Positions 1-10,847 of a stretch of DNA of 32,000 bases are shown here, piece after piece. The position numbers and the translations under genes are program-made. Source of the stretch: an archaeon. Its GTDB lineage: Archaea; Asgardarchaeota; Thorarchaeia; Thorarchaeales; Thorarchaeaceae. The DNA lies in the NCBI GenBank assembly GCA_024275415.1, contig JAJRZD010000112.1, positions 7,014 through 39,013 on the forward strand, in the 5' to 3' direction. Each line of letters begins with the position of its first letter. Position 1 is the first letter of the stretch. Under the pieces are notes generated by a model that made no database searches, was not told the origin of the DNA, and was given only the letters and a program-made list of their open reading frames with translations.

Positions 1-1743
1 CAGATATGCTTCTACCATTGCCATGATCTGCTCATTCGTTGAATGCAACATGATTATCGCGTTGCTTGGGCATGCCGCTGCACAGGTACCGCATCCATGG
101 CATTTGGCCTCGGTCACGTACGCAATATGGGGGTCTCGTGACATGTCCCAGCTTATCGCTCCGTAAGGACATGCTGTGATACAGGTGGCACAGGATGAGC
201 ACAGGTCTGGGATGACACGCGACACTGTTGATTCAATCTCGACTGCACCTTTTGCCATCAGTCCCACTGCTTTGGCTGCAGCCCCGCTCGCATCGATAAC
301 TGATTCCGAAGCGTTCTTGGCAGCCTGTGCAGCACCCGCAATCATGATTCCCGCGGTGTGCGTTGTGACAGGGTTCAGCTTCACATGTTCGGGATTGAAG
401 AAGCCATCCGAGCTTCTCGTGAGGCTAAAGGTATGGCTCACTTCCTCTATCCCTTCTGGAGGCACCATTGCCGTGGCAAGAACGATGATGTCTGGGTTGA
501 ATTCCATATCTGTGTCTGCGAGGACATCTTTCCAACGCATGGTGATCTTACCATCATTCACCTCTACTTCAGGTTTGGCGTCCGGAGGATACTTTGTGTA
601 GATGACATGCTTCTGCCGAGCAACTCTCTGAAAGTCCTCGTGCTCCTTGCCGTAGGTCCGGATGTCCTGATAGAGAATGACTACCTCATCAAGTCGATCC
701 GCCATGATGCCCGCTGTCTTTGCCAGTGCTGAACAGCAATACCGCGAGCAATGCTCGTGTCCTTTCCAGCCCGGCTCGCGAGAGCCGACGCATCCGATAA
801 AGGCGACCTTCCTGACTGGCTTCCCGTCACTCGGTCTGATGAACTGCTGCTCATCAGGTCTTCCTTGCAGGTCTCCCAGAGTCATGATATCTAATGATTT
901 GTCATAATTATAGAGACCCACTGGGACGTATGGTTGGAATCCTGTAGCCACTATCACGGCTCCGACCTCATACTTCTTGTGTTTCTTCAAGCCTTCTACT
1001 GAAACCTCCACCTCGAAATTGCCTATGTACCCTTCGAAGTTCACAATGACTGCGCCGGTTCGAATCTCTATGTTCTTGTGCTTTCGAACACGATGAATCA
1101 TGGGTTCCAATACCTCATGACCTGGCTTGTCACCAGGAAACATATGGGCCCACTTCCGGACATTGCCGCCAAGCTCCCTTTCTCGCTCGATGAGCACTAC
1201 CTCAAACCCTCTGTCTGCGATATCAAGGGCCGCCCTGAGCCCTGCAATCCCTCCACCCACGACAAGTGTGCGAGGAGTGATCTCAACCTTTTTGATTGGC
1301 AATGGCTCAAGATTTGCAGCCCGTGCCACCGCCATCCGAACTAGGTCATTGGCTTTGGCTGTAGCAGCTTCAGGTTCTCTCATATGACACCAAGAAACGT
1401 GCTCGCGTAGATTCACCTGCTCGAATAGATAACGGTTTAATCCGGCTTCTTCAACCACTCTCCGGAATGTAGGTTCGTGCATCCGCGGTGAGCAGCTGGC
1501 TACGATAACTCTGTTGAGGTTATGTTCATGTATCATGGTTCTGATGGTTTCCTGACCTGCATCACTACAGGTGAACATCTCATGAGTTGTAAATACAACA
1601 TTTGGTAGAGTGGCTGCTGTTTTTGCCACATCCTCGACATCCACAACTCCTGCAATGTTATGGCCACAATGGCACACGAACACACCAATCCGTAGCTCTT
1701 CCTTTGATTCCATGGCGTTCATTCCTACACTGTCTTCTGTCAT
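1..1743 (-). CDS. hdrA: Heterodisulfide reductase subunit A-like flavoprotein, short type (3' end runs off the window; at least 581 aa)
   Basis: Translated by hand: open frame from ATG at 1743 (ATGA overlap with the hdrB stop) to position 1 with no stop. Reads MTEDSVG...RIGVFVCHCGHNIAG, FTCS, ASCSPRMHE, VVGGGIAGLRAA (FAD), GCVGSRE...HCSRYCC, C-terminal CSSCATCITACP and CHGCGTCAAACP, ending QIMAMVEAYL. Alternative start at ATG 1713. Confidence 0.95.
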   Translation of the reverse strand, partial: MTEDSVGMNAMESKEELRIGVFVCHCGHNIAGVVDVEDVAKTAATLPNVVFTTHEMFTCSDAGQETIRTMIHEHNLNRVIVASCSPRMHEPTFRRVVEEAGLNRYLFEQVNLREHVSWCHMREPEAATAKANDLVRMAVARAANLEPLPIKKVEITPRTLVVGGGIAGLRAALDIADRGFEVVLIERERELGGNVRKWAHMFPGDKPGHEVLEPMIHRVRKHKNIEIRTGAVIVNFEGYIGNFEVEVSVEGLKKHKKYEVGAVIVATGFQPYVPVGLYNYDKSLDIMTLGDLQGRPDEQQFIRPSDGKPVRKVAFIGCVGSREPGWKGHEHCSRYCCSALAKTAGIMADRLDEVVILYQDIRTYGKEHEDFQRVARQKHVIYTKYPPDAKPEVEVNDGKITMRWKDVLADTDMEFNPDIIVLATAMVPPEGIEEVSHTFSLTRSSDGFFNPEHVKLNPVTTHTAGIMIAGAAQAAKNASESVIDASGAAAKAVGLMAKGAVEIESTVSRVIPDLCSSCATCITACPYGAISWDMSRDPHIAYVTEAKCHGCGTCAAACPSNAIIMLHSTNEQIMAMVEAYL

Positions 1744-2615
1744 TGGCTCACCCCACAACAGTCAATTACCGAATGAGGGTCAATCTTGTTCAGCTCGACA
1801 CCCAACATGTCCTCGTCCAAGCCCAATGCTGGCCCTAGAAACTGGGTGATGGGTAGCACTGGTATCTTCTGTCGATCACTGGTTCCCCCTCCGAACTGTA
1901 CCTGGGTCAGCTGGATATCACAGAACACACAAGCTGTCACAATCCCGTCTGCTCCAGCTTTGGTAACGTTATCGATCTTGTCCAGTCCAATGGTCGTAGC
2001 GACATCCTCATCCATTGCGAGCATCGGACCCCCACAGCAACGTGTCTTTCCAGGATAGTCCACTGCTTGTCCGCCCACAGCTTCAACCAGTCTATCCAGG
2101 ATAGTGGGGTTCTCGGGGTCGTCAACATGGACTATCTCGTAGGGACGTGTCACATGGCATCCATAGTGCGCCGCCATTTTGATGCCATTATAGGGCTTGA
2201 CAACAGCCCGTTCTATCTTGTCGAATCCAATATCCTCTGCCAAGACCTGTAAGAGGTGACGCACACGGACTTTACCACTGTACTTCAAACCCTCTTCTGC
2301 AAGTAAGGAATTCACCTCATCTCTAGCACGGATATCATGGTCAAGAAAGTGCTTGTTCGTCTTGAGAGACCCTGAACATGCACCACAAATTGCAAGGATG
2401 TCCTTTTCCTCGCGCTCAGCCAGTGCCAGTATTCTTCCACTCATAGACGCAAAAGCCATCCTGTCCATGGATTCGACGTATTGAGCGCCACAACAATTTG
2501 TATCTTTCAGCTCGATGACATTTACTCCGAGCTTCTCAAGGACCGCGATAGTGGCAGCCTCGTATGCTGGAAGTCTGACTGGGGTGGTACAGCCTCTATA
2601 GAGCAGCATATCCAT
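1740..2615 (-). CDS. hdrB: Heterodisulfide reductase subunit B (two CCG domains)
   Basis: Two complete CCG motifs: YRGC...NCCG...ICGAC and HYGCH...RCCGG...ACVFC. 291 aa, abutting hdrC and overlapping the short hdrA. Confidence 0.95.
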   Translation of the reverse strand: MDMLLYRGCTTPVRLPAYEAATIAVLEKLGVNVIELKDTNCCGAQYVESMDRMAFASMSGRILALAEREEKDILAICGACSGSLKTNKHFLDHDIRARDEVNSLLAEEGLKYSGKVRVRHLLQVLAEDIGFDKIERAVVKPYNGIKMAAHYGCHVTRPYEIVHVDDPENPTILDRLVEAVGGQAVDYPGKTRCCGGPMLAMDEDVATTIGLDKIDNVTKAGADGIVTACVFCDIQLTQVQFGGGTSDRQKIPVLPITQFLGPALGLDEDMLGVELNKIDPHSVIDCCGVSQ

Positions 2616-3166
2616 TAGCTCCCACTCTCCTCAGCAGCTTTCTTTCGTTCGAAATACCTTTTTCTCAACTTTCCAACGAACTCGTTGTTCATGTGTAGCT
2701 CAGGGTTCAGTCCAAGGTCCTCGCGTTCGTCCTCTTGAAAATCAGTGTATGCATCTTTCAGCATCCAACCATCCTCCAACACAGTCTTCACAGCCTCTTT
2801 GAAGACCCGCGGGACATGTCCTTCTCGTGCTGCAATCGTTCGAACAGCAAGGAATATCTCGGCAGGCGACACTCCCTCTTGGCAGCGTTCCTCACACATC
2901 CTGCAATTAAGACAGAGCCACGATTGGTCGCTCGAAAGAACTTCCTCTCGAAGTCCAAGGATGATTTTTTGGATCATTCGTCTTGGCCTGTATAGATCGG
3001 TCGCATTGGCCACAACACAGCTAGCAGTACATATGCCACATTGGATACACTTGTTGATGGCTTCACCGCCTTCTACCTTCTCAACCTCTTTGGCAAAAGC
3101 TGAGGTTGGAACATGAATAGATTTCTCTTGACCTTTTGTTGTACAAGTATGCATTATATTCGTCAC
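2615..3166 (-). CDS. hdrC: Heterodisulfide reductase subunit C (2x[4Fe-4S])
   Basis: CIQCGICTASC and WLCLNCRMCEERC; RRMIQKIILGLREEVL is typical of HdrC. GTG start overlaps the upstream TGA stop. Confidence 0.92.
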   Translation of the reverse strand: MTNIMHTCTTKGQEKSIHVPTSAFAKEVEKVEGGEAINKCIQCGICTASCVVANATDLYRPRRMIQKIILGLREEVLSSDQSWLCLNCRMCEERCQEGVSPAEIFLAVRTIAAREGHVPRVFKEAVKTVLEDGWMLKDAYTDFQEDEREDLGLNPELHMNNEFVGKLRKRYFERKKAAEESGS

Positions 3167-5973
3167 CTCGATTTGGTTGTTTCAAGCTCAGCCTCTGGAG
3201 CCAGACTTTCTATAGTATGTTCGGAATCCTGGCCTGCAATCATTCCCCCCAGTACAATTGATGCTCTCATGGCGGCCGCACTTCCCGCAGTCACTGAATC
3301 GGGTATGTCCTTCGGCCCATCAGCACAACCACAGACGAAGATACCCATCTTGCTGGTATCGACAGGAGAAGTGAGCTCGTTCCGTACATCGATGTAGCCT
3401 TCATCTGAGAGGGCGATTCCAAGCTCCTCTGCTAGTATATTGACATCATCTGCAGGAAGCAGACCTGGGCTTATCACCAAAAGGTCATGCTCAACCTTCT
3501 CAACGGAGCCAGTTTCTGTGTTCTCTACTTGGATCATGAGGTTGTCATTCTCAGGGTTCTCGTCTACTTCACCAACACGCCCTCGGACAAAGTTGACGCC
3601 AAATCGGGTCTTTGACATCTCGAAGAACTCCTCGAACCCTTTGCCAAACGCTCGAATATCCGCATAGTATATAGAAACCTTCGCCTCTGGGTCATGTTCT
3701 CTAGCCATCACAGCATTCTTGATGCCATACATACAACAGACCCTGCTACAATGGGGAACATTCTTCTGAGTATCTCGCGCTCCGACGCATTGCACGAACC
3801 CGATGTTCTTCGGCATTTTTCCGTCGCTCAGGCGTATCAGATGACCTTGAGTAGGACCCGCTGCATTGATGAGTCGCTCGAATTCCATGGCTGTTATGAC
3901 ATTCTTGAACTTACCATATCCAAGCCGTTTGTATTTGCTGACCTCAAAGAGCTTGTATCCAGTGGCAACTACAATGGCTCCCACGTTCAGGCTCAACCGT
4001 TCCTCCTTCATCGAGTGATCGATGGCATCTCTATCACATGCTTCCACACAGTTCATGCACTCACAACATATCGTGCAGTTCAGACAGCGCCCTGATTCAT
4101 CGAGGGCAGTATCTTCATCAAATCCAAGCTCGACCTCTGAGAAATCGCCTTTACGACTTGCGATGCTCTGATGGGGCATCTCAGCTCTGGCTTGTGGTAT
4201 GAATGTCGATTGGTCTATCTTTGGTCTTGCAATCCTGTAGACCTCAGGGTCTCGCCCTGCTCGAATATCCAGTCCGTTAAGGTATCTATCGATAGATATT
4301 GCAGCCTCCTCACCCTGCCCAACAGCCTGCACTACTGTGGCTGGGCCAAGAACACAGTCACCACCAGCGAAGACTCCCTCATTACTCGTTTGCAATGTGA
4401 CTTGATCTGTGATAATGGTACCCCACTCGGTAGTATCCAAATCGTTGTGGAGTGGAATTGGTTCTACAGACTGACCAACTGCGATAATCATAGTGTCTGC
4501 AACGACAGTGAACTCCGAATCAGGTATTGGGATAGGTCTCCTTCGCCCTGAGTGGTCAGGTTCACCCAGACGCATTCGGATGCACTTGACACCTTGCACA
4601 GTACCTTTCTGGGTCAGAACCTCTACTGGATTCGTGAGGAACATGAAGCGGATCCCCTCCTGACGGGCCATCTCTACCTCTGATGGGATGGCTGGGAGTT
4701 CGACCTGTGAGCGCCGGTATATCATTGTGACTTCGGACGCACCCAGACGAAGAGCTGTCCTACACGAATCCACGGCTGCATCGCCACCCCCGATGACCAC
4801 TACGCGTTCACCTAATTCTACAGGCTTGTGAGACGCGACTCTATCGAGAAAATCAATTGCATGGTATACACCTTTCGAGTCTTCACCTGCAATCATCAGT
4901 TTGTTACTGTGACTGGCGCCTGTAGCTATGAAGACTGCCTTGAATCCTTCATCTTTGAGCTCATCGATTGATTGTATCTCTCTGTCACAGACGAACTCGA
5001 CGCCGTGCTTTGCGACCCATTGGATCTCTTCCTGAAGGATGTCCCTTGGCAGTCGGTATTCAGGTATCGCATATTTCAGCAGTCCTCCCTCTTCTGATCT
5101 CTTCTCAAAAACAGTCACAGGATACCCTTTACGGGCAAGATGATATGCACATGAGATTCCTGCTGGTCCGGCACCCACAACGGCAACCCGTTCACTCCTC
5201 TTGATTTGAGGTTCCACCGTGACCTGTGTGTTGTGTTCTCTCTCGTAGTCTGAGAGGAAACGGTGGAGATTCCTGATGCTAACGCTCTCGTCATACTCTC
5301 CTCGTTGACACTGCCCTTCACACCAGCTTACACAGACCCTTCCGAGAGTGCCCGGGAATGGTATTGCATCCCGCACAATTCTGATGGCTTCTGCATATTT
5401 CTTTTGATTCATCAAAGTGACGAATGCCTGAGCATTCACGCCTGCTGGACAATTAATCCTGCAGGCTGGGTGGTCTCGTTTATCAATCGTGTACACATTA
5501 GGTGTAGCCTGTGGGAACGGTAAATAGGTCGCTTTCCTGAAGCCCAATCCCTCATCAAATTCATTTGCAACCTCGATAGGGCAGACCTCAGAGCAGTCGC
5601 CACATCCCGAGCATTTGTCTTCCAGAATGTATCGAGGTTTCCTGATGACTTCCACATGAAAATTGCCAGCTTTGCCAGTCACTCGCTTGACTTCAGAATA
5701 CGTCAGAAGCTCGATATTTGGATGTCGTGCAACCTCACTCAATCGTGGCGTCAGTATGCATGCTGAACAATCAAGGGTAGGGAAGGTCTTGTCTATTGCT
5801 GCCATATGTCCGCCAATGCTAGGCGTCTTCTCGACAAGATGGACTTTGAAACCTTGGTTTGCGATGTCCAATGCGGCTTGCATTCCAGCAACACCACCAC
5901 CTATCACGAGTGCACTGGGTTCCTGGGTGTCCTTATTTGCAGGATTTGTTTGCGTAGGATGATCAACAGTCAT
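3163..5973 (-). CDS. hdrA: HdrA core with an inserted GltD/NfnB-like NAD(P)H:flavin Fe-S module (HdrL-like), 936 aa
   Basis: HdrA motifs: GGGVAG, DKTFPTLDCSACIL, CSGCGDCSEVCP, ITAMEFERL, QCVGARD...CSRVCC, GCADGPKDIP. Insert motifs: CRINCP...GRVCVSWCEGQC, GAGPAG, GGGDAAVD, YRRS, FAGGD, RCLNC. SD-like AAGGAG at 5982-5987. Confidence 0.93.
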   Translation of the reverse strand: MTVDHPTQTNPANKDTQEPSALVIGGGVAGMQAALDIANQGFKVHLVEKTPSIGGHMAAIDKTFPTLDCSACILTPRLSEVARHPNIELLTYSEVKRVTGKAGNFHVEVIRKPRYILEDKCSGCGDCSEVCPIEVANEFDEGLGFRKATYLPFPQATPNVYTIDKRDHPACRINCPAGVNAQAFVTLMNQKKYAEAIRIVRDAIPFPGTLGRVCVSWCEGQCQRGEYDESVSIRNLHRFLSDYEREHNTQVTVEPQIKRSERVAVVGAGPAGISCAYHLARKGYPVTVFEKRSEEGGLLKYAIPEYRLPRDILQEEIQWVAKHGVEFVCDREIQSIDELKDEGFKAVFIATGASHSNKLMIAGEDSKGVYHAIDFLDRVASHKPVELGERVVVIGGGDAAVDSCRTALRLGASEVTMIYRRSQVELPAIPSEVEMARQEGIRFMFLTNPVEVLTQKGTVQGVKCIRMRLGEPDHSGRRRPIPIPDSEFTVVADTMIIAVGQSVEPIPLHNDLDTTEWGTIITDQVTLQTSNEGVFAGGDCVLGPATVVQAVGQGEEAAISIDRYLNGLDIRAGRDPEVYRIARPKIDQSTFIPQARAEMPHQSIASRKGDFSEVELGFDEDTALDESGRCLNCTICCECMNCVEACDRDAIDHSMKEERLSLNVGAIVVATGYKLFEVSKYKRLGYGKFKNVITAMEFERLINAAGPTQGHLIRLSDGKMPKNIGFVQCVGARDTQKNVPHCSRVCCMYGIKNAVMAREHDPEAKVSIYYADIRAFGKGFEEFFEMSKTRFGVNFVRGRVGEVDENPENDNLMIQVENTETGSVEKVEHDLLVISPGLLPADDVNILAEELGIALSDEGYIDVRNELTSPVDTSKMGIFVCGCADGPKDIPDSVTAGSAAAMRASIVLGGMIAGQDSEHTIESLAPEAELETTKSR

Positions 5974-6537
5974 TATTTAAACTCCTTAATCCAGAAATAT
6001 TCTCTAACCTAACAAAGCAGTGCAAAGTGTGACTTTCTCTGAGATAGGCCCGAAATGATTCATTGTTCAAATACTCAGACCATCGCATAGATGTGCACAC
6101 TCATTGGTCTTGGATAATCTTTGATCGCCATCAGAGTACAGTCACAGATGTTTGATGTCCATCAGAAGGTTAGTTAACCTGCTATACTAATTGGAAAAGA
6201 ATGAAATAAGTTTGCGCAGTTTGGAAACGTGCAAAGAATAATTGTTTATGTTTTGAAATGAGCTTATTATGATGTTGAAATGTCCGAAATGTGACATATT
6301 TCGGATGGCCGTGAAACACATGTCTGGAACGTGGTATTCCTGTTTAATGCCTGCCTTGGGGATAAAAGCCATTTCCAAAATGAATGTTTCTATAGAAGAA
6401 ACCGAACATGGTGGTGTGTGGCTATATGGAAGACACAAGTGCTCATACTAAGTCACCATTGATGCCACTCTAGACGAGTTAATCTATCTCTGAACAAATC
6501 TTGAATATCAGGTCGGACAGTTGGTTAGTATCAACTA

Positions 6538-8412
6538 TCATGCCAACACAGAAGGAACAATGCAATCACCAAGTCGATGCTTGATGGCTTCCAGTTTTGC
6601 TCGTTGTTCAGATAGAATCCTGTAGAGCAATTCAGGGGCATCTGGCACCGTTTCACGGTATACTTTCTCGATCCTCTCAATCTTGGCGAGGTGGTCTGGC
6701 ACCCTGAGCTTGAACTGCTCCTCATATTCGGCTTCCGAATATTCCTTGTCCAGATGCTTCTCAAACAATGATTTGAGGTCTTCGTAATGGGGGATATGTC
6801 CTGTTGGTGTTGCGATTGCATCGACCTCGTCATGCACCCTTAGTTCCATCCATTTCAACCAGACACGCTTGTCTGACTTATCAGTTATGAAATTACCTTC
6901 CTTATCTCTCAGGAAATAGTTCACAGCAAAGATGAGAGGGGGTGAGTCGATATCCACAACGAAATCTAGGTGGTTCTGGATATACCTGCCCAGTGGGATT
7001 GAGATGAAATCTAGATTTGAGAAAGGCTGAAACTTTCTCACACCACTTGGTCCCAATGTTGCTGCGGTGGTTTCTGACTCAAGGCTTGCACCCATTGTGA
7101 TGACGCCATGTTCCCAGTTCAATGACTGCTGAACAGGCACCCAGGTATCGCGGTCTCTTCCACCATAAATGATGCCTCCTACCTCCACACCGCGGGGGTC
7201 ATCTAGAGCATCGTCCAAGTTCGAGAGACCGTCCAGACCAATGGTGTATCTTGCGTTTTTGTGAGCATACGGGATGACCTCACCGTTTCGATCAACCTTT
7301 CCTTCAAACCATTCGCCCGAGAAATTGATTCCAGCCTTTGGAGGCGGGAGTCCGTCATCCAACCAGCGAGGCTCAGCATCCTCCGTCACAAGTACATTTG
7401 AAAAGATAGCGGGCTGTTTTGAATGGAGGACATCCCAGATTATTGGGTCATCCTTTTCAGTCACAGAACGGATGATTCCGAAGATACCTCGTTCGACATT
7501 CACAGCCCTGACCTTTCCATCTATCTTTCTGAGATATGCAAGATCATCTCCCACGATGGAATTGCCGCGGGTCATTGATGTGCTCGTCTTTCCACATCCG
7601 GATGGGAATGCCCCTGTGAAGTATGTTTTCCGTCCGGTGGGTCCATGTACGGCCATAAGGAACATATGTTCGGCAAGCCACCCCTCTTTGTCAGCTTTCC
7701 GAATCGCAAGGCGAAGTGCAAGCTTCTTCAGTCCGATAGTGTTCCCCGCATATTGAGTGTTCATACTGTAGACGGTATTTGTCTTGTAGTCAATCATGAC
7801 ACCTCGTTTCTTCCAGTCCGTGCTCACTGAATGGATGAGCTTGCCAGAAGAATGCAGCATCCAGAAGATCTCGTGATCCTCCGGCATCCTTCTGAAGTAA
7901 TCATACCCGCGTCGATAGAGTAGATCCTCACTGTGTGCCACATAGAACGAGTCAGTTATCTGTACGGCGGGAATGGAGAACGGCGAGTCCAGAGGACCGA
8001 GAACGAAGAAGCGAACGACCATCTTCTTATTTTCCATGGTTCCAGACAGTCGATCCCGGGCCAATTGCAGACCGTAGTCGCGGTCTATCTGAGATAGATG
8101 CTCACCTAAAACTTCACCTTTTGGTACTAAATAGACCGTACGTTCTTTATCTCGTGCCTGATCAAAATAACCATCGAAATGGACTGTGTGGTATGGGTTG
8201 GCAAGTGGTGCTTCCTCTCCCCGTGCTATCGCTGTGCGTCGGATGTACTCGGTGTCCTCTCTCGAATCATTGCATACGAACACCTTCATCGGCTTGCAGA
8301 GCCTTATTGCATCTGCTACGAACTTATGCACTCGCCTGTTAGGAATCGCAAGCAGTTTCCTAAAATTAGCATCAGTCAATGACTGTTCGAGAACCGACAT
8401 TATCTCGTTCAA
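6538..8412 (-). CDS. pckG: Phosphoenolpyruvate carboxykinase (GTP-dependent)
   Basis: YAGNTIGLKK, WLAEHM, GAFPSGCGKTS (P-loop with Cys), VGDDLA, ERGIFG, HKNARYT, IIYGGRD, VNYFLRD. 624 aa; TTG start with GGGGA 8 nt upstream (alternative ATG at 8400). Confidence 0.95.
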   Translation of the reverse strand: MNEIMSVLEQSLTDANFRKLLAIPNRRVHKFVADAIRLCKPMKVFVCNDSREDTEYIRRTAIARGEEAPLANPYHTVHFDGYFDQARDKERTVYLVPKGEVLGEHLSQIDRDYGLQLARDRLSGTMENKKMVVRFFVLGPLDSPFSIPAVQITDSFYVAHSEDLLYRRGYDYFRRMPEDHEIFWMLHSSGKLIHSVSTDWKKRGVMIDYKTNTVYSMNTQYAGNTIGLKKLALRLAIRKADKEGWLAEHMFLMAVHGPTGRKTYFTGAFPSGCGKTSTSMTRGNSIVGDDLAYLRKIDGKVRAVNVERGIFGIIRSVTEKDDPIIWDVLHSKQPAIFSNVLVTEDAEPRWLDDGLPPPKAGINFSGEWFEGKVDRNGEVIPYAHKNARYTIGLDGLSNLDDALDDPRGVEVGGIIYGGRDRDTWVPVQQSLNWEHGVITMGASLESETTAATLGPSGVRKFQPFSNLDFISIPLGRYIQNHLDFVVDIDSPPLIFAVNYFLRDKEGNFITDKSDKRVWLKWMELRVHDEVDAIATPTGHIPHYEDLKSLFEKHLDKEYSEAEYEEQFKLRVPDHLAKIERIEKVYRETVPDAPELLYRILSEQRAKLEAIKHRLGDCIVPSVLA

Positions 8413-8666
8413 TGTTCTATTCCCCTGATTTCACGGAGCACACATGTCCGGTTGATTCATCTCCAACATGACACACACGCCTGCTGCAACCTGACCCTTA
8501 AAACAGTTTTTCCATGAAACACGCAGTTGTTCAATCCCAAAAATAGATTGTCCAATAGGAACACATGTTCATGTCGTCTATGACAACACTCAAATGTTGA
8601 GGGCAGCCGATAACGGCTCATGCCTTGAAGGAGAGCAAGGTAGAAGAATGGATGATGGTGAGTCTG

Positions 8667-10847
8667 ATGCTGAAGGAGTTCACCTATGACGTACCAAAGA
8701 TAGAGCGCGGCTATGCCAATCAGACGCTCTACGTGAATTTGAGCACCAACGAGATCAAGGTCAAGCCTGTTGATGAGAAGATGAAAGAAACCTTCACTGG
8801 AGGAAAAGGCTTCGACCTGTGGCTTATGTGGAACGGGCTACCTAAAGACAAGGTTGTCAAATGGGATGATCCCGAGAATGAGATCTGTATCGCCTCAGGA
8901 CCATTGGGAGGCGTGACCCAGTACCCGGGAGCTGGAAAATCAATCGTGACGACAATCTCGCCTATGACTGGTATCCCGATTGACTCTAATGTGGGAGGGT
9001 ATTTTGGGCCCCACCTGAAGTTCAGTGGATTTGATGCCATGGAAATCCAGGGAAAGGCAAATTCTGATATCTATATCTTCATTGATGGAGATCACGGCAA
9101 GGTTCAGATATATGATGCCTCTGACCTTCCTGACACGGCCTACGAGATCACGCGGGTTCTTAGCGAAAGGCATACTGAAAAGGACGGTAAGGATCTGTCG
9201 GTGGTGTCAGCGGGACCTGGTGCTGAACATGCATGGATGGGGTGCCTGAACTTTAGCTGGTGGGATATGAGACGGAATATGCCTAGATACAAGCAAGCAG
9301 GCCGTGGAGGAGTTGGTACTGTATTCCGTAACAAAAGAATCAAGGCTTTAGTCTGCAAGATTCAGAAAATCACACTAGATATGAACAATCCTGCGGATCC
9401 GGATGGAGTAAAGAAGGTCGGTCGTGAGCATTCCAGCGAGATCCTCGAACTCGATTCAAAGCAGAACAGGATGCGTGTTGTTGGAACTGGACACCTGCCC
9501 AGCATCATGGACGAGTTCGACCTACTGCCAACACGCAACTTTAGGACTGGAAGTGATCCTGAAGCGAAGAACCTGTTTGGCGATGTCTGGGAAAAGATAT
9601 TCACGAATCCCGGAAAGGGCTGGGATGGATGTTGGAGACCCTGTGCCATCAATTGTTCACACTGCATTGAGGGCTTTGTCCCTAAAACAGGGCCATTCAA
9701 AGGCAAGACTGTTCTGGTCGATGGGCCCGAGTACGAAACCATCGCTGGGTGTGGTTCTAATATTGGTGTGTTCGACCCTCACTATGTTGCAGAGATGAAC
9801 TTTTACTGTGACGCCTATGGGATCGACACGATATCTTTTGGCACAACAATGGCATTCGTGATGGAACTCTTTGAAGAGGGATATATCGACGAGAAGGCTA
9901 CTGGGGGACACAAGCTCACATGGGGCGCAGGAGAAGAGGCGTTAGCTGTCCTTCACGAGATTGCTGAGGGTAAGGGCTTTGGCGGTGAGCACTTTGGCAA
10001 GGGGACGCACTATCTCAAAGGCTACTTCAGAAAATTCGGTGTCGATGAACAGATCATGCAGGACATAGGGATGGAACATAAGGGTCTTGAATACTCCGAA
10101 TACATGACCAAGGAAAGCCTTGCTCAACAGGGGGGTTACGGACTCGCCTTAAAAGGTCCACAGCATGATGAGGCATGGTTGATATTCCTTGACATGGTTC
10201 ACAACTATATGCCAACTTTTGACCAGAAAGCAGAGGCACTTCACTGGTTCCCAATGTGGCGAACATGGTTCGGGTTGAACGGACTGTGTAAGCTACCGTG
10301 GAATGATGTCGTTCCTGCTGACAATGCTCAGACTGATGAGCCTGCAAAGGTTCCCAAGCATATTGAGTTCTATGCACGGTTCTTCGAAGCGATGACAGGA
10401 CGTCCAACTAAGGGTGATGACCTCGTAGGCATGTCTGAGAAAGTCTACAACTTCCAGAGGATATTCAACATTCGCCAAGGCAAAGGGCTGCGAATAAATG
10501 ACTCTTTCATCCCATACAGGAGCGCTGGACCTGTCACTGATTGGGAATATAAGTCACGACAGGAACGTTATGATACCCAACTCAAGGAGTCAGGAATCGA
10601 TATTGATGGTATGACAACCACTGAGAAGAAAGACAAGCTACGAGAAATCCGGGAGGAACGTTACAGGCTCCTTACTGATGCGGCATACAAACGGCGAGGC
10701 TGGACACGGAATGGCGTGCCCACATTGGACAAGGTAAAGGCACTTGGACTTGACTGGATCCCCGGACTTGTTGATATCGTGAAGAAGCATACAGAGTCAC
10801 AGCCACCCAATGAAACACTTCCTGCTAGTGATGAGGCTTGGATGTGA
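8667..10847 (+). CDS. aor: Aldehyde:ferredoxin oxidoreductase family tungsto/molybdo-enzyme
   Basis: TFTGGKG, DSNVGG, LKFSGFDA, SAGPG, AGRGG, DGPEYET, CDAYGIDTIS, GLCKLPW, RGW. ATG 8667 was chosen because GGTGAG lies just upstream (the track starts at 8625). The substrate subfamily cannot be assigned. Confidence 0.9.
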   Translation: MLKEFTYDVPKIERGYANQTLYVNLSTNEIKVKPVDEKMKETFTGGKGFDLWLMWNGLPKDKVVKWDDPENEICIASGPLGGVTQYPGAGKSIVTTISPMTGIPIDSNVGGYFGPHLKFSGFDAMEIQGKANSDIYIFIDGDHGKVQIYDASDLPDTAYEITRVLSERHTEKDGKDLSVVSAGPGAEHAWMGCLNFSWWDMRRNMPRYKQAGRGGVGTVFRNKRIKALVCKIQKITLDMNNPADPDGVKKVGREHSSEILELDSKQNRMRVVGTGHLPSIMDEFDLLPTRNFRTGSDPEAKNLFGDVWEKIFTNPGKGWDGCWRPCAINCSHCIEGFVPKTGPFKGKTVLVDGPEYETIAGCGSNIGVFDPHYVAEMNFYCDAYGIDTISFGTTMAFVMELFEEGYIDEKATGGHKLTWGAGEEALAVLHEIAEGKGFGGEHFGKGTHYLKGYFRKFGVDEQIMQDIGMEHKGLEYSEYMTKESLAQQGGYGLALKGPQHDEAWLIFLDMVHNYMPTFDQKAEALHWFPMWRTWFGLNGLCKLPWNDVVPADNAQTDEPAKVPKHIEFYARFFEAMTGRPTKGDDLVGMSEKVYNFQRIFNIRQGKGLRINDSFIPYRSAGPVTDWEYKSRQERYDTQLKESGIDIDGMTTTEKKDKLREIREERYRLLTDAAYKRRGWTRNGVPTLDKVKALGLDWIPGLVDIVKKHTESQPPNETLPASDEAWM

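Follow-up and report, generated by a model that had tools for sequence, protein, structure and literature searches.

A Thorarchaeial HdrA with a GltD/NfnL-like NADP(H) cassette inside its ferredoxin domain, encoded with a predicted [NiFeSe] hydrogenase

We analysed hdrA(GltD), a gene of the heterodisulfide reductase (Hdr) type in a 32,000-nucleotide (nt) stretch of DNA, hereafter the window, from an archaeon of the Thorarchaeaceae (contig JAJRZD010000112.1 of assembly GCA_024275415.1, forward-strand positions 7,014-39,013). Its product is an HdrA of 936 amino acids (aa) in which a 469-residue module resembling GltD and NfnL, with sites for flavin adenine dinucleotide (FAD) and nicotinamide adenine dinucleotide phosphate, NADP(H), interrupts the inserted ferredoxin domain. 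Our reading of its operon, to which we give a probability of roughly 0.45, is that it may encode a reversible H2:(disulfide + NADP+) oxidoreductase in which NADP(H) would take the place of free ferredoxin on the low-potential arm of a bifurcating complex. An earlier note on this DNA had placed a GltD-like insert between the two ferredoxin halves at 4075-5472, correctly within two codons (4069-5475), and the motifs it quoted (a CxxCxxCxxxCP half, GAGPAG, GGGDAAVD, YRRS and CCECMNCVEAC) all stand in the DNA where it put them. The architecture as such is not new: hdrA(GltD) is a split, hydrogenase-linked, probably NADPH-specific Thorarchaeial form of the HdrL-type fusions, among which the note had rightly counted it.

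Along the protein, Pfam profiles matched an FAD Rossmann site (residues 20-58), Fer4 (114-136), Fer4_20 (168-248, E 2.9e-16) and Pyr_redox_2 (262-554, E 1.5e-54), and NCBIfam and PDB searches showed a GltD/NfnB-like centre flanked on either side by HdrA homology. In a phmmer search of the PDB, residues 20-166 matched positions 145-291 of the M. thermolithotrophicus HdrA (5odc) and residues 636-909 matched positions 293-566. The insertion, residues 167-635, falls between host positions 291 and 293 without the loss of a single host residue, and is immediately followed by the Cys that opens the second CxxCxxCxxxC motif in the inserted ferredoxin domain. Both motifs of that domain (C121/124/127/131 and C636/639/642/646) are present and invariant, one on each side of the cassette. 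Conservation was measured in 120 homologues, two of which are partial sequences with gaps; all 23 Cys assigned to clusters are invariant in this set, or gapped in the two partial sequences, and the conserved groups include C69/C72, eight host ferredoxin Cys, seven Cys of the cassette and the four of cluster HA3. In our alignments these E-values and the invariance of the 23 Cys exclude chance as the source of the insertion architecture. An AlphaFold2 (AF2) model built from 69 homologues, with a mean predicted local distance difference test (pLDDT) score of 83.8 and values above 90 across most of the cassette, matched HdrA 5odh_A with Z 43.1 over 412 aa in the model range 15-914.

According to the alignments and the model, HdrA(GltD) retains the flavin site with its Glu/Lys pair, the cluster HA3 on the side of HdrC/HdrB and the Cys that would complete the HA4 cluster of a partner. 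Glu699 and Lys752, both invariant in the homologue alignment, correspond to Glu356 and Lys409 of 5odc, the pair at the flavin by which a bifurcating HdrA is recognised (Appel et al. 2021, as quoted in PMC9430772). The thioredoxin-reductase-like (TrxR-like) FAD domain carries the HA3 residues C729, C742, C746 and C747, again invariant, and Cys69/Cys72 align with Cys194/Cys197 of methanogen HdrA. The protein begins 19 residues upstream of the FAD site and stops after the TrxR domain, so that neither the N-terminal nor the C-terminal domain of HdrA is present.

The Pfam, NCBIfam and PDB searches and the structure comparison agree with the earlier note that the insert is a GltD/NfnB-type module with FAD, NAD(P)H and two [4Fe-4S] sites. 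Its closest solved relatives are the NfnL-like domains of T. sibiricus NfnA, C. saccharolyticus NfnA and S. ovata StnC (E 1e-114 to 1e-98); in the PDB alignment, residues 168-642 are colinear with StnC 8oh5_C 101-573 and NfnA 9bov_A 101-574. The best structural match of the AF2 model was NfnA(Bfu) 9bov_A (Z 51.5, root-mean-square deviation (rmsd) 1.7 Å, 471 residues, model range 167-645), and StnC gave Z 49.6. NfnL 5jca_L (E 1.7e-89; identity to NfnB/NfnL about 41% across the aligned core) was matched over the model range 165-567 only (Z 40.4, rmsd 1.6 Å, 399 aa). In sequence, NfnL 50-471 corresponds to residues 169-566, and NfnL 8-56 to residues 596-646, after the flavoprotein core; 4ylf_B 5-43 aligns to the same post-core segment. 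Because the NfnL alignment breaks in two and the Fer4_20 profile shows the same split (positions 29-112 at residues 168-248, positions 2-36 at 608-646 with E 0.0022), the cassette is, by its alignments, a circular permutation of the NfnB/GltD segment order, opened between the second and third Cys of CxxCxxxxCxxxCP. Its termini meet at the distal cluster, at most three residues from the second ferredoxin motif of the host. Although this arrangement is visible in the Stn and NfnABC structures, the Stn/NfnABC papers that we examined do not name it a permutation. Measured against NfnB/NfnL, the GltD fold with its FAD and NADPH sites and seven invariant cluster Cys is present, but the native segment order is not, since the N-terminal segment follows the core.

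Ligands of the two cassette clusters were assigned by homology to dihydropyrimidine dehydrogenase (DPD), NfnB and NfnA(Bfu): C171, C222, C630 and C633 for the distal cluster, and C175, C214, C218 and His237 for the FAD-proximal one. NfnB has Glu as the fourth ligand of the proximal cluster; His237 stands here instead, at the position of Lys170 in StnC and NfnA, whose flavin has been shown not to bifurcate (PMC10482914, PMC11829005). The residue is His in 87 of the 120 homologues, all 87 Asgard-type, and Lys in the other 33. Over all inserted cassettes it is His or Lys in 104 of 104, as opposed to Glu in the stand-alone NfnB-like genes of the same data set. We rejected His237 as an Asgard-only trait because a small deltaproteobacterial group also has His, there with a CLE motif. 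R307 corresponds to StnC R239 and NfnL R201 and does not vary among the homologues, and Ala181 lies at the position of StnC Cys114.

Most cassettes, all the Thorarchaeial ones among them, have YRR[ST] where the second Rossmann strand ends; of the 108 cassettes from the loci analysed, about 20, mostly from one clade, have CLE[SKTD] at this position. A Glu here is typical of NADH binders. The family appears to hold both types of pyridine-nucleotide specificity, and because relatives show either YRR or the Glu-containing CLE at the same place, YRRS becomes a meaningful NADPH signal; the assignment of hdrA(GltD) to NADPH thus seems reasonable, and the earlier use of YRR as an NADPH mark gains strength from the contrast. 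The Glu-bearing CLE/SLE loci, which include L084, L053, L056, L061, L066, L067, L074, L082, L087, L088 and L116, are predicted to be NADH-type members of the same architecture. Four cassettes (L120:5082-6509, L083:10448-11761, L059:5168-6580 and L078:13589-14992) have a degenerate second Rossmann Gly motif and neither YRR nor CLE; these may have lost pyridine-nucleotide binding and kept their clusters. GxGxxA versus GxGxxG was rejected as a mark of NADPH or NADH, GGGxxA being found in both the YRR and the CLE class. This analysis adds three points of description: the circular permutation that the cassette has in common with StnC/NfnA, the His at the ligand position, and the rule based on YRR and CLE.

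The two domains that HdrA(GltD) lacks, the N-terminal domain along with the ferredoxin domain at the C-terminus, are both present in HdrA2, the product of a second hdrA gene in the same operon. Residues 20-253 of HdrA2 align with 5odc 2-235 and residues 263-584 with 5odc 319-648, and about nine residues take the place of 5odc 236-318, that is, HdrA2 has no inserted ferredoxin domain. It also has no Cys194/197, and carries Gln at the Glu356 position and Lys at the Lys409 position. The operon therefore holds a GltD-like module inside the inserted ferredoxin domain of one HdrA and, in hdrA2 with mvhD, the partner half without that domain, as in HdrL-type proteins, but in two genes with hdrC and hdrB between them and not in one polypeptide. 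Chadwick et al. took the complementarity of Cys197 and the N-terminal domain to mean obligate heterodimers in anaerobic methanotrophic archaea (ANME; PMC9012536), and the complementary domain losses of the two Thorarchaeial proteins would likewise imply a heterodimer. Because HA4 needs the partner's N-terminal domain plus Cys197, HdrA(GltD) would need HdrA2 to join its ferredoxin domain to the flavin.

The genes are ordered hdrA(GltD)-hdrC-hdrB-hdrA2-mvhD-mvhG-mvhA-vhuU, with hdrA(GltD) first. Start and stop codons, read from the DNA, overlap at all three junctions from hdrA(GltD) through hdrC and hdrB to hdrA2 (Table 1), and the operon is translationally coupled. The earlier note had pictured an HdrABC that works without Mvh hydrogenase and had suggested looking for mvhD or flx genes left of the window. 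That part of its proposal has to be given up: the operon continues immediately left of the window with mvhD (FlpD, E 7e-51), a short conserved open reading frame (ORF), mvhG, the gene for the NiFe large subunit and vhuU. Judged by its motif, the short mvhA followed by vhuU is a split selenocysteine C-terminus of the VhuU type, which makes the predicted enzyme an [NiFeSe] Vhu-type hydrogenase. The whole Mvh/Vhu-Hdr gene set, namely hdrB with two CCG domains, hdrC, mvhD, mvhG and mvhA with vhuU, thus occurs together. The order hdrA(GltD)-hdrC-hdrB-(optional plain hdrA)-hdrA2-mvhD-orf-mvhG-mvhA is kept in 12 relatives of the family as far as the contigs reach. By Pfam and operon annotation, the operon encodes no NfnA/NfnS-type partner, the rest of the genome not having been searched for partners, and no HydB/C-like genes, the partners of StnC/NfnA, were found in it.

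In the solved Hdr complexes electrons enter by the MvhD/C-terminal arm, and their low-potential exit is the inserted ferredoxin domain (PMC13518236). Bifurcation at the HdrA flavin sends the high-potential electron via HA3, HdrC and HdrB and the low-potential electron via the inserted ferredoxin domain (PMC13518236, PMC9012536), the latter path running through the cluster completed by Cys197 (PMC9012536). In the oxidoreductase that we propose, HdrA(GltD) would be one half of an asymmetric heterodimer with HdrA2, and each heterodimer would contain one complete three-armed system centred on the FAD of HdrA(GltD). On the input side, electrons would pass reversibly between H2, the Vhu/Mvh [NiFeSe] hydrogenase, MvhD, the C-terminal ferredoxin domain of HdrA2 and the bifurcating FAD; the disulfide arm would lead from that FAD through HA3, HdrC and HdrB to a disulfide. 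The NADP arm would start from the same FAD and go through HA4 and the two ferredoxin-domain clusters to the distal GltD cluster, and from there through the proximal cluster (C175, C214, C218, His237) and the GltD FAD to NADP+. As the cassette was opened inside the distal-cluster motif, the distal cluster, which in NfnB is the ferredoxin contact, would be stitched directly onto the host ferredoxin clusters. It is this fusion of the distal cluster to the ferredoxin exit of HdrA that leads us to propose a hard-wired bypass, with NADP(H) replacing free ferredoxin. As in StnC, the GltD flavin would simply convert between two-electron and one-electron transfer and would not be a second bifurcation site, because the cassette is StnC-like and both the Glu ligand and an NfnS partner are missing. 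The net reversible reaction would be 2 H2 + R-S-S-R' + NADP+ = 2 thiols + NADPH + H+, which could be an advantage in sediments, whose H2 levels are too low for H2 to reduce NADP+ unaided. Bifurcation to ferredoxin, which the earlier note had thought possible, is doubtful, since the arm that feeds ferredoxin in the solved complexes is here taken up by the module (PMC13518236).

A wider physiological picture can be drawn from this scheme, although we consider it somewhat unlikely: the Thorarchaeial operon would encode a ferredoxin-free bifurcator in which exergonic disulfide reduction drives H2-dependent NADP+ reduction at the very low H2 found in sediments, or the reverse in syntrophy, providing a direct link between H2 and NADPH beside a paralogous ferredoxin-linked complex, with the His-ligated cluster as a lineage-specific tuning of the NADP arm.

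Three points weigh against the H2:(disulfide + NADP+) oxidoreductase. The sole purified relative, the fused Moorella HdrA, takes NADH as donor (PMC9430772), a sign that the GltD arm can serve as an input and not as a low-potential output. Passing low-potential electrons to NADP+ looks wasteful at high H2. Finally, in many relatives an extra plain HdrA is fused or adjacent to hdrA2 and could be the true partner of HdrA2 there. If NADPH instead took the place that NADH has in Moorella HdrA and Flx-Hdr, that of the mid-potential donor, electrons would run from NADPH over the GltD FAD and the ferredoxin-domain clusters to the HdrA FAD, which would split them between HdrBC with the disulfide and the hydrogenase, the low-potential outlet being the C-terminal ferredoxin domain of HdrA2 and then MvhD (2 NADPH + RSSR + 2 H+ -> 2 NADP+ + 2 RSH + H2). 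We regard this as the main alternative, though an unlikely one, and it has several observations on its side. For Moorella HdrA, a fused protein of the same architecture, NADH oxidation at 190 U/mg is on record (PMC9430772), the homologous module is the NADPH entry point in StnC and NfnA (PMC10482914, PMC11829005), Asgard Mvh-Hdr complexes are usually discussed as H2-evolving (PMC9723677), and NAD(P)H is the only obvious donor for most bacterial relatives, which have MvhD but no hydrogenase. However, all solved Hdr complexes use the MvhD/C-terminal arm as input and the inserted ferredoxin domain as low-potential output (PMC13518236), and NADPH reduces protons unaided at sediment H2 pressures, so that little would be gained from coupling. 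The tandem arrangement of plain and GltD operons described below also suggests that the partner on the ferredoxin side was exchanged, not the donor.

The separation of the two hdrA genes by hdrC and hdrB, together with the many relatives in which hdrA2 is fused or adjacent to a plain HdrA of its own, could mean that there is no super-complex, HdrA(GltD)-HdrC-HdrB being a simple NADPH:disulfide reductase and HdrA2-MvhDGA a separate, co-transcribed hydrogenase module. This is improbable given that HdrA(GltD) has no N-terminal domain, so that only together with HdrA2 can it form the HA4 that links its ferredoxin domain and the FAD, and that Cys72 is conserved in every homologue covering the position; moreover, the two halves are commonly fused in bacteria (1460-1600 aa) and the operon genes overlap at their junctions. 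Very improbable, in our view, is the presence of two bifurcation sites in one polypeptide, with the GltD FAD acting like the b-FAD of NfnB beside the HdrA FAD, an idea published by Chadwick et al. for ANME-1 (PMC9012536). The conserved fold and R307 and the identity of about 41% to NfnB/NfnL would fit it, but the operon encodes no NfnA/NfnS-type partner, the proximal-cluster Glu of true NfnB is replaced by His or Lys in every one of the 104 cassettes, and the cassette groups with the StnC/NfnA type, whose flavin is non-bifurcating (PMC10482914).

Table 1. Features of hdrA(GltD), its operon and related genes. Positions are those of the window unless a contig or locus label (G000:C.., L009) precedes them.
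Feature	Position	Strand	Remarks
hdrA(GltD)	3163..5973	-	936-aa HdrA with NADP(H) module; no N-terminal domain, no C-terminal ferredoxin domain
Host part 1, residues 1-166	5476..5973	-	FAD Rossmann site, Cys69/Cys72, first ferredoxin motif; aligned to 5odc 145-291
First ferredoxin motif CSGCGDCSEVCP, C121-C131	5578-5613	-	read from DNA
GltD/NfnL-like cassette, residues 167-635	4069..5475	-	Fe-S subdomain, FAD domain, NADP(H) domain, linker, permuted N-terminal segment
Fe-S subdomain of cassette	5230..5472	-	Fer4_20 profile positions 29-112; C171, C175, C214, C218, C222, His237
His237	5263-5265	-	position of non-Cys ligand of FAD-proximal cluster; mapped on StnC Lys170, NfnA Lys-170
GAGPAG	5158-5175	-	read from DNA
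NADP(H) Rossmann fingerprint	4708..4791	-	GGGDAAVD 4768-4791 and YRRS 4708-4719
Permuted segment, residues 596-635	4069..4188	-	equals N-terminal helix and RCxxC of NfnB/GltD; C630, C633 for distal cluster
Second host ferredoxin motif CCECMNCVEAC (C636, C639, C642, C646)	4036..4068	-	aligned to 5odc 293-303
Host part 2, residues 647-936	3166..4035	-	remainder of TrxR-like domain; 5odc alignment
Glu699	3877-3879	-	E356 of 5odc
Four Cys of cluster HA3	3733-3789	-	host part 2
Lys752	3718-3720	-	K409 of 5odc
hdrC	2615..3166	-	Fer4_8; TIGR03290 E 2.7e-27; GTG start overlaps hdrA stop (GTGA)
hdrB	1740..2615	-	two CCG domains (PF02754 twice); TIGR03288 E 2.8e-73; start overlaps hdrC stop (TAATG)
hdrA2	1..1758	-	597 aa; last 12 codons left of window; probable start ATG 1743-1741 overlaps hdrB stop (ATGA)
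Small ORF between mvhD and mvhG	L009:6305-6751	-	tblastn 26-66% identity in nearly all Thorarchaeial relatives and the C21 paralogue; no Pfam match
mvhA	L009:4050-5366		NiFe large subunit, only 438 aa
vhuU	L009:3874-4038	-	54 codons; ~3 kb left of window; in-frame TGA within CU..C..H motif
GTP-type phosphoenolpyruvate (PEP) carboxykinase (PEPCK)	6538-8412	-	directly upstream of operon
Aldehyde:ferredoxin oxidoreductase	8625-10847	+	divergent from PEPCK
Plain paralogue cluster hdrC-hdrB-hdrA(no cassette)-hdrA2-mvhD	G000:C21:75035-80156		host parts 80% and 68% identical to HdrA(GltD)
metF region	G000:C104:6450-12194		metF, the only methylenetetrahydrofolate reductase (MTHFR) gene of genome, with mtrH-mtrA-mtrH, DUF2114, cofE
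Stand-alone NfnB-like gene	G000:C71:8156-9403		Glu ligand and YRR motif

HdrL dates from 2009 (PMC2702500); to our knowledge, no structure has been solved and no overall reaction established for HdrL, Moorella HdrA or ANME-1 HdrA9-11. Like hdrA(GltD), the HdrL of Desulfobacterium autotrophicum and Syntrophobacter fumaroxidans joins HdrA and glutamate-synthase parts in one large fusion and has an NAD(P)H site; the hdrL genes of sulfate reducers, biochemically uncharacterised, are always beside mvhD and often near hdrBC (PMC2702500, PMC5947623). HdrL is, however, usually fused and without MvhAG, and DsrC, its presumed substrate, was not found in the Thorarchaeial genome. Another close system is the MetFV-HdrABC-MvhD complex of Moorella thermoacetica, taken here from its published description (PMC9430772): a GltD domain splits the ferredoxin and TrxR-like domains of its HdrA, the fusion partner is an HdrA that has no inserted ferredoxin domain, the Glu/Lys pair is E696/K750 (E699/K752 in our protein), and MvhD and HdrBC are partners as well. 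In contrast to this single fused protein of 1487 aa, which oxidises NADH, the Thorarchaeial halves lie in two genes and the cassette carries the NADPH-type YRRS; the Moorella complex has no hydrogenase and passes electrons to MetFV, whereas the Thorarchaeial operon has MvhGA and VhuU, with metF elsewhere. The earlier note had conceded that its proposal would fail if this exact architecture had already been characterised in another role. This applies only in part: the fused Moorella HdrA has been purified, oxidises NADH and works with MetFV (the same source, citing Mock 2014).

HdrA9/10/11 of ANME-1, compared here by description, resemble hdrA(GltD) in the NfnB-like insertion of about 500 aa in the inserted ferredoxin domain of an archaeal HdrA, with NADPH as the proposed carrier (PMC9012536). 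That form was reported 'only in some ANME-1' among the genomes of the same study, while we find the architecture in Thorarchaeia and at least 15 phyla, and the Thorarchaeial gene, unlike HdrA9-11, is linked to the predicted [NiFeSe] hydrogenase. The NfnL-like domain of StnC/NfnA (8oh5, 9bov, 9n5u) has the same permuted order and boundaries and an NADPH site, shares with HdrA(GltD) the Arg numbered R239 in StnC, and is likewise inserted in an Fe-S domain, but a different one: its host is NuoG-like with HydBC-type partners and a Lys170 ligand, as opposed to HdrA and His237. With the methanogen MvhADG-/VhuADGU-HdrABC complexes (5odc; PMC13518236) the operon shares HdrB, HdrC, MvhD, MvhG, MvhA/VhuU, the TrxR-like flavin site, HA3 and the inserted ferredoxin domain as low-potential arm. 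Methanogen HdrA is a homodimer with ferredoxin or polyferredoxin as acceptor, whereas here there are two complementary HdrA proteins and a built-in NADP(H) module, and the CoM/CoB (coenzyme M/coenzyme B) and methyl-coenzyme M reductase (MCR) markers were not found. The Asgard literature that we examined treats Mvh-Hdr clusters as ordinary ferredoxin-linked complexes, and an earlier mention of the GltD form elsewhere is possible.

We surveyed 301 sampled Asgard genomes, 76 of them of the same family, with a query spanning both junctions of the cassette. The query matched at full length with E <= 1e-199 in 52 of the 76 family genomes, and other Asgard families have variants of 1120-1170 aa with an N-terminal domain or of 1640-1665 aa in fused form. 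The nearest homologues of the protein (60-83% identical, 907-941 aa) are labelled Thorarchaeota, and some Hermod-, Odin- or Promethearchaeota. One relative, L110, carries a plain operon in tandem with a GltD operon, and both include an hdrA2-mvhDGA set of their own, so that plain and GltD HdrA look like alternative partners for the same hydrogenase arm. Beyond the phylum, the 80 best loci from species-representative genomes all had the cassette at the same site; they come from at least 15 bacterial and archaeal phyla, including Desulfobacterota, Chloroflexota, Bacillota, Acidobacteriota, Bacteroidota, Bathyarchaeia and Hadarchaeota. HdrA(GltD)-HdrA2-MvhD is the conserved core in most of these 80 loci, often fused (1460-1605 aa in other lineages, commonly in bacteria) and often near hdrCB, and MvhGA is adjacent in only a few.

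In FastTree phylogenies the 104 inserted cassettes formed one clade apart from the stand-alone, Glu-type NfnB-like genes, but the host-part tree mixed cassette-bearing and plain HdrA, at least 15 changes being needed. In L079, L116, L011, L113 and L062, the cassette-bearing and plain paralogues of the same locus were sister pairs in the host-part tree. On these grounds we rejected a single ancient insertion followed by simple vertical descent of the whole gene. The pattern suggests repeated precise loss of the cassette or gene conversion between tandem paralogues, which we offer as a lead from quick FastTree trees.

The genome that holds the window (on contig C97) has 3.5 Mb, is 92.9% complete and contains one GltD-HdrA copy. 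No MCR_alpha/mcrA was found in this 92.9% complete genome, and neither were ComA and DsrC. Together with the Thorarchaeota among the nearest homologues, the first result agrees with the non-methanogenic host assumed in the earlier note. The absence of MCR_alpha and ComA argues against CoM-S-S-CoB as the substrate, as far as gene content can tell. A plain paralogue cluster lies on another contig (Table 1), and its plain hdrA has one in-frame TGA, possibly a selenocysteine codon. We found no support for a Moorella-like link to MetFV: metF is on a different contig, with no metV or hdr genes near it. NADPH from or for the Hdr complex may be one possible electron link of MetF. The stand-alone NfnB-like gene, with its Glu ligand, probably means that the genome also encodes a conventional Nfn-type enzyme. 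Next to the operon, a 564-nt gap (5974-6537) between the PEPCK gene and hdrA(GltD) should hold the operon promoter.

Current models of Asgard energy metabolism and syntrophy give Mvh-Hdr complexes a central place and usually show them as ferredoxin-linked. Of the sampled family genomes, about two thirds encode, beside a plain paralogue, a version whose ferredoxin arm would be hard-wired to NADP(H). HdrL-type enzymes are widespread over many phyla and yet almost uncharacterised, and the split Thorarchaeial form, all of whose partners are encoded in a single operon, would suit expression and structural studies well. The contrast of YRR and CLE offers a sequence rule that predicts NADPH or NADH use across the family. 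If NADP(H) indeed replaces ferredoxin, H2 metabolism and the anabolic NADPH pool would be directly coupled in these archaea.

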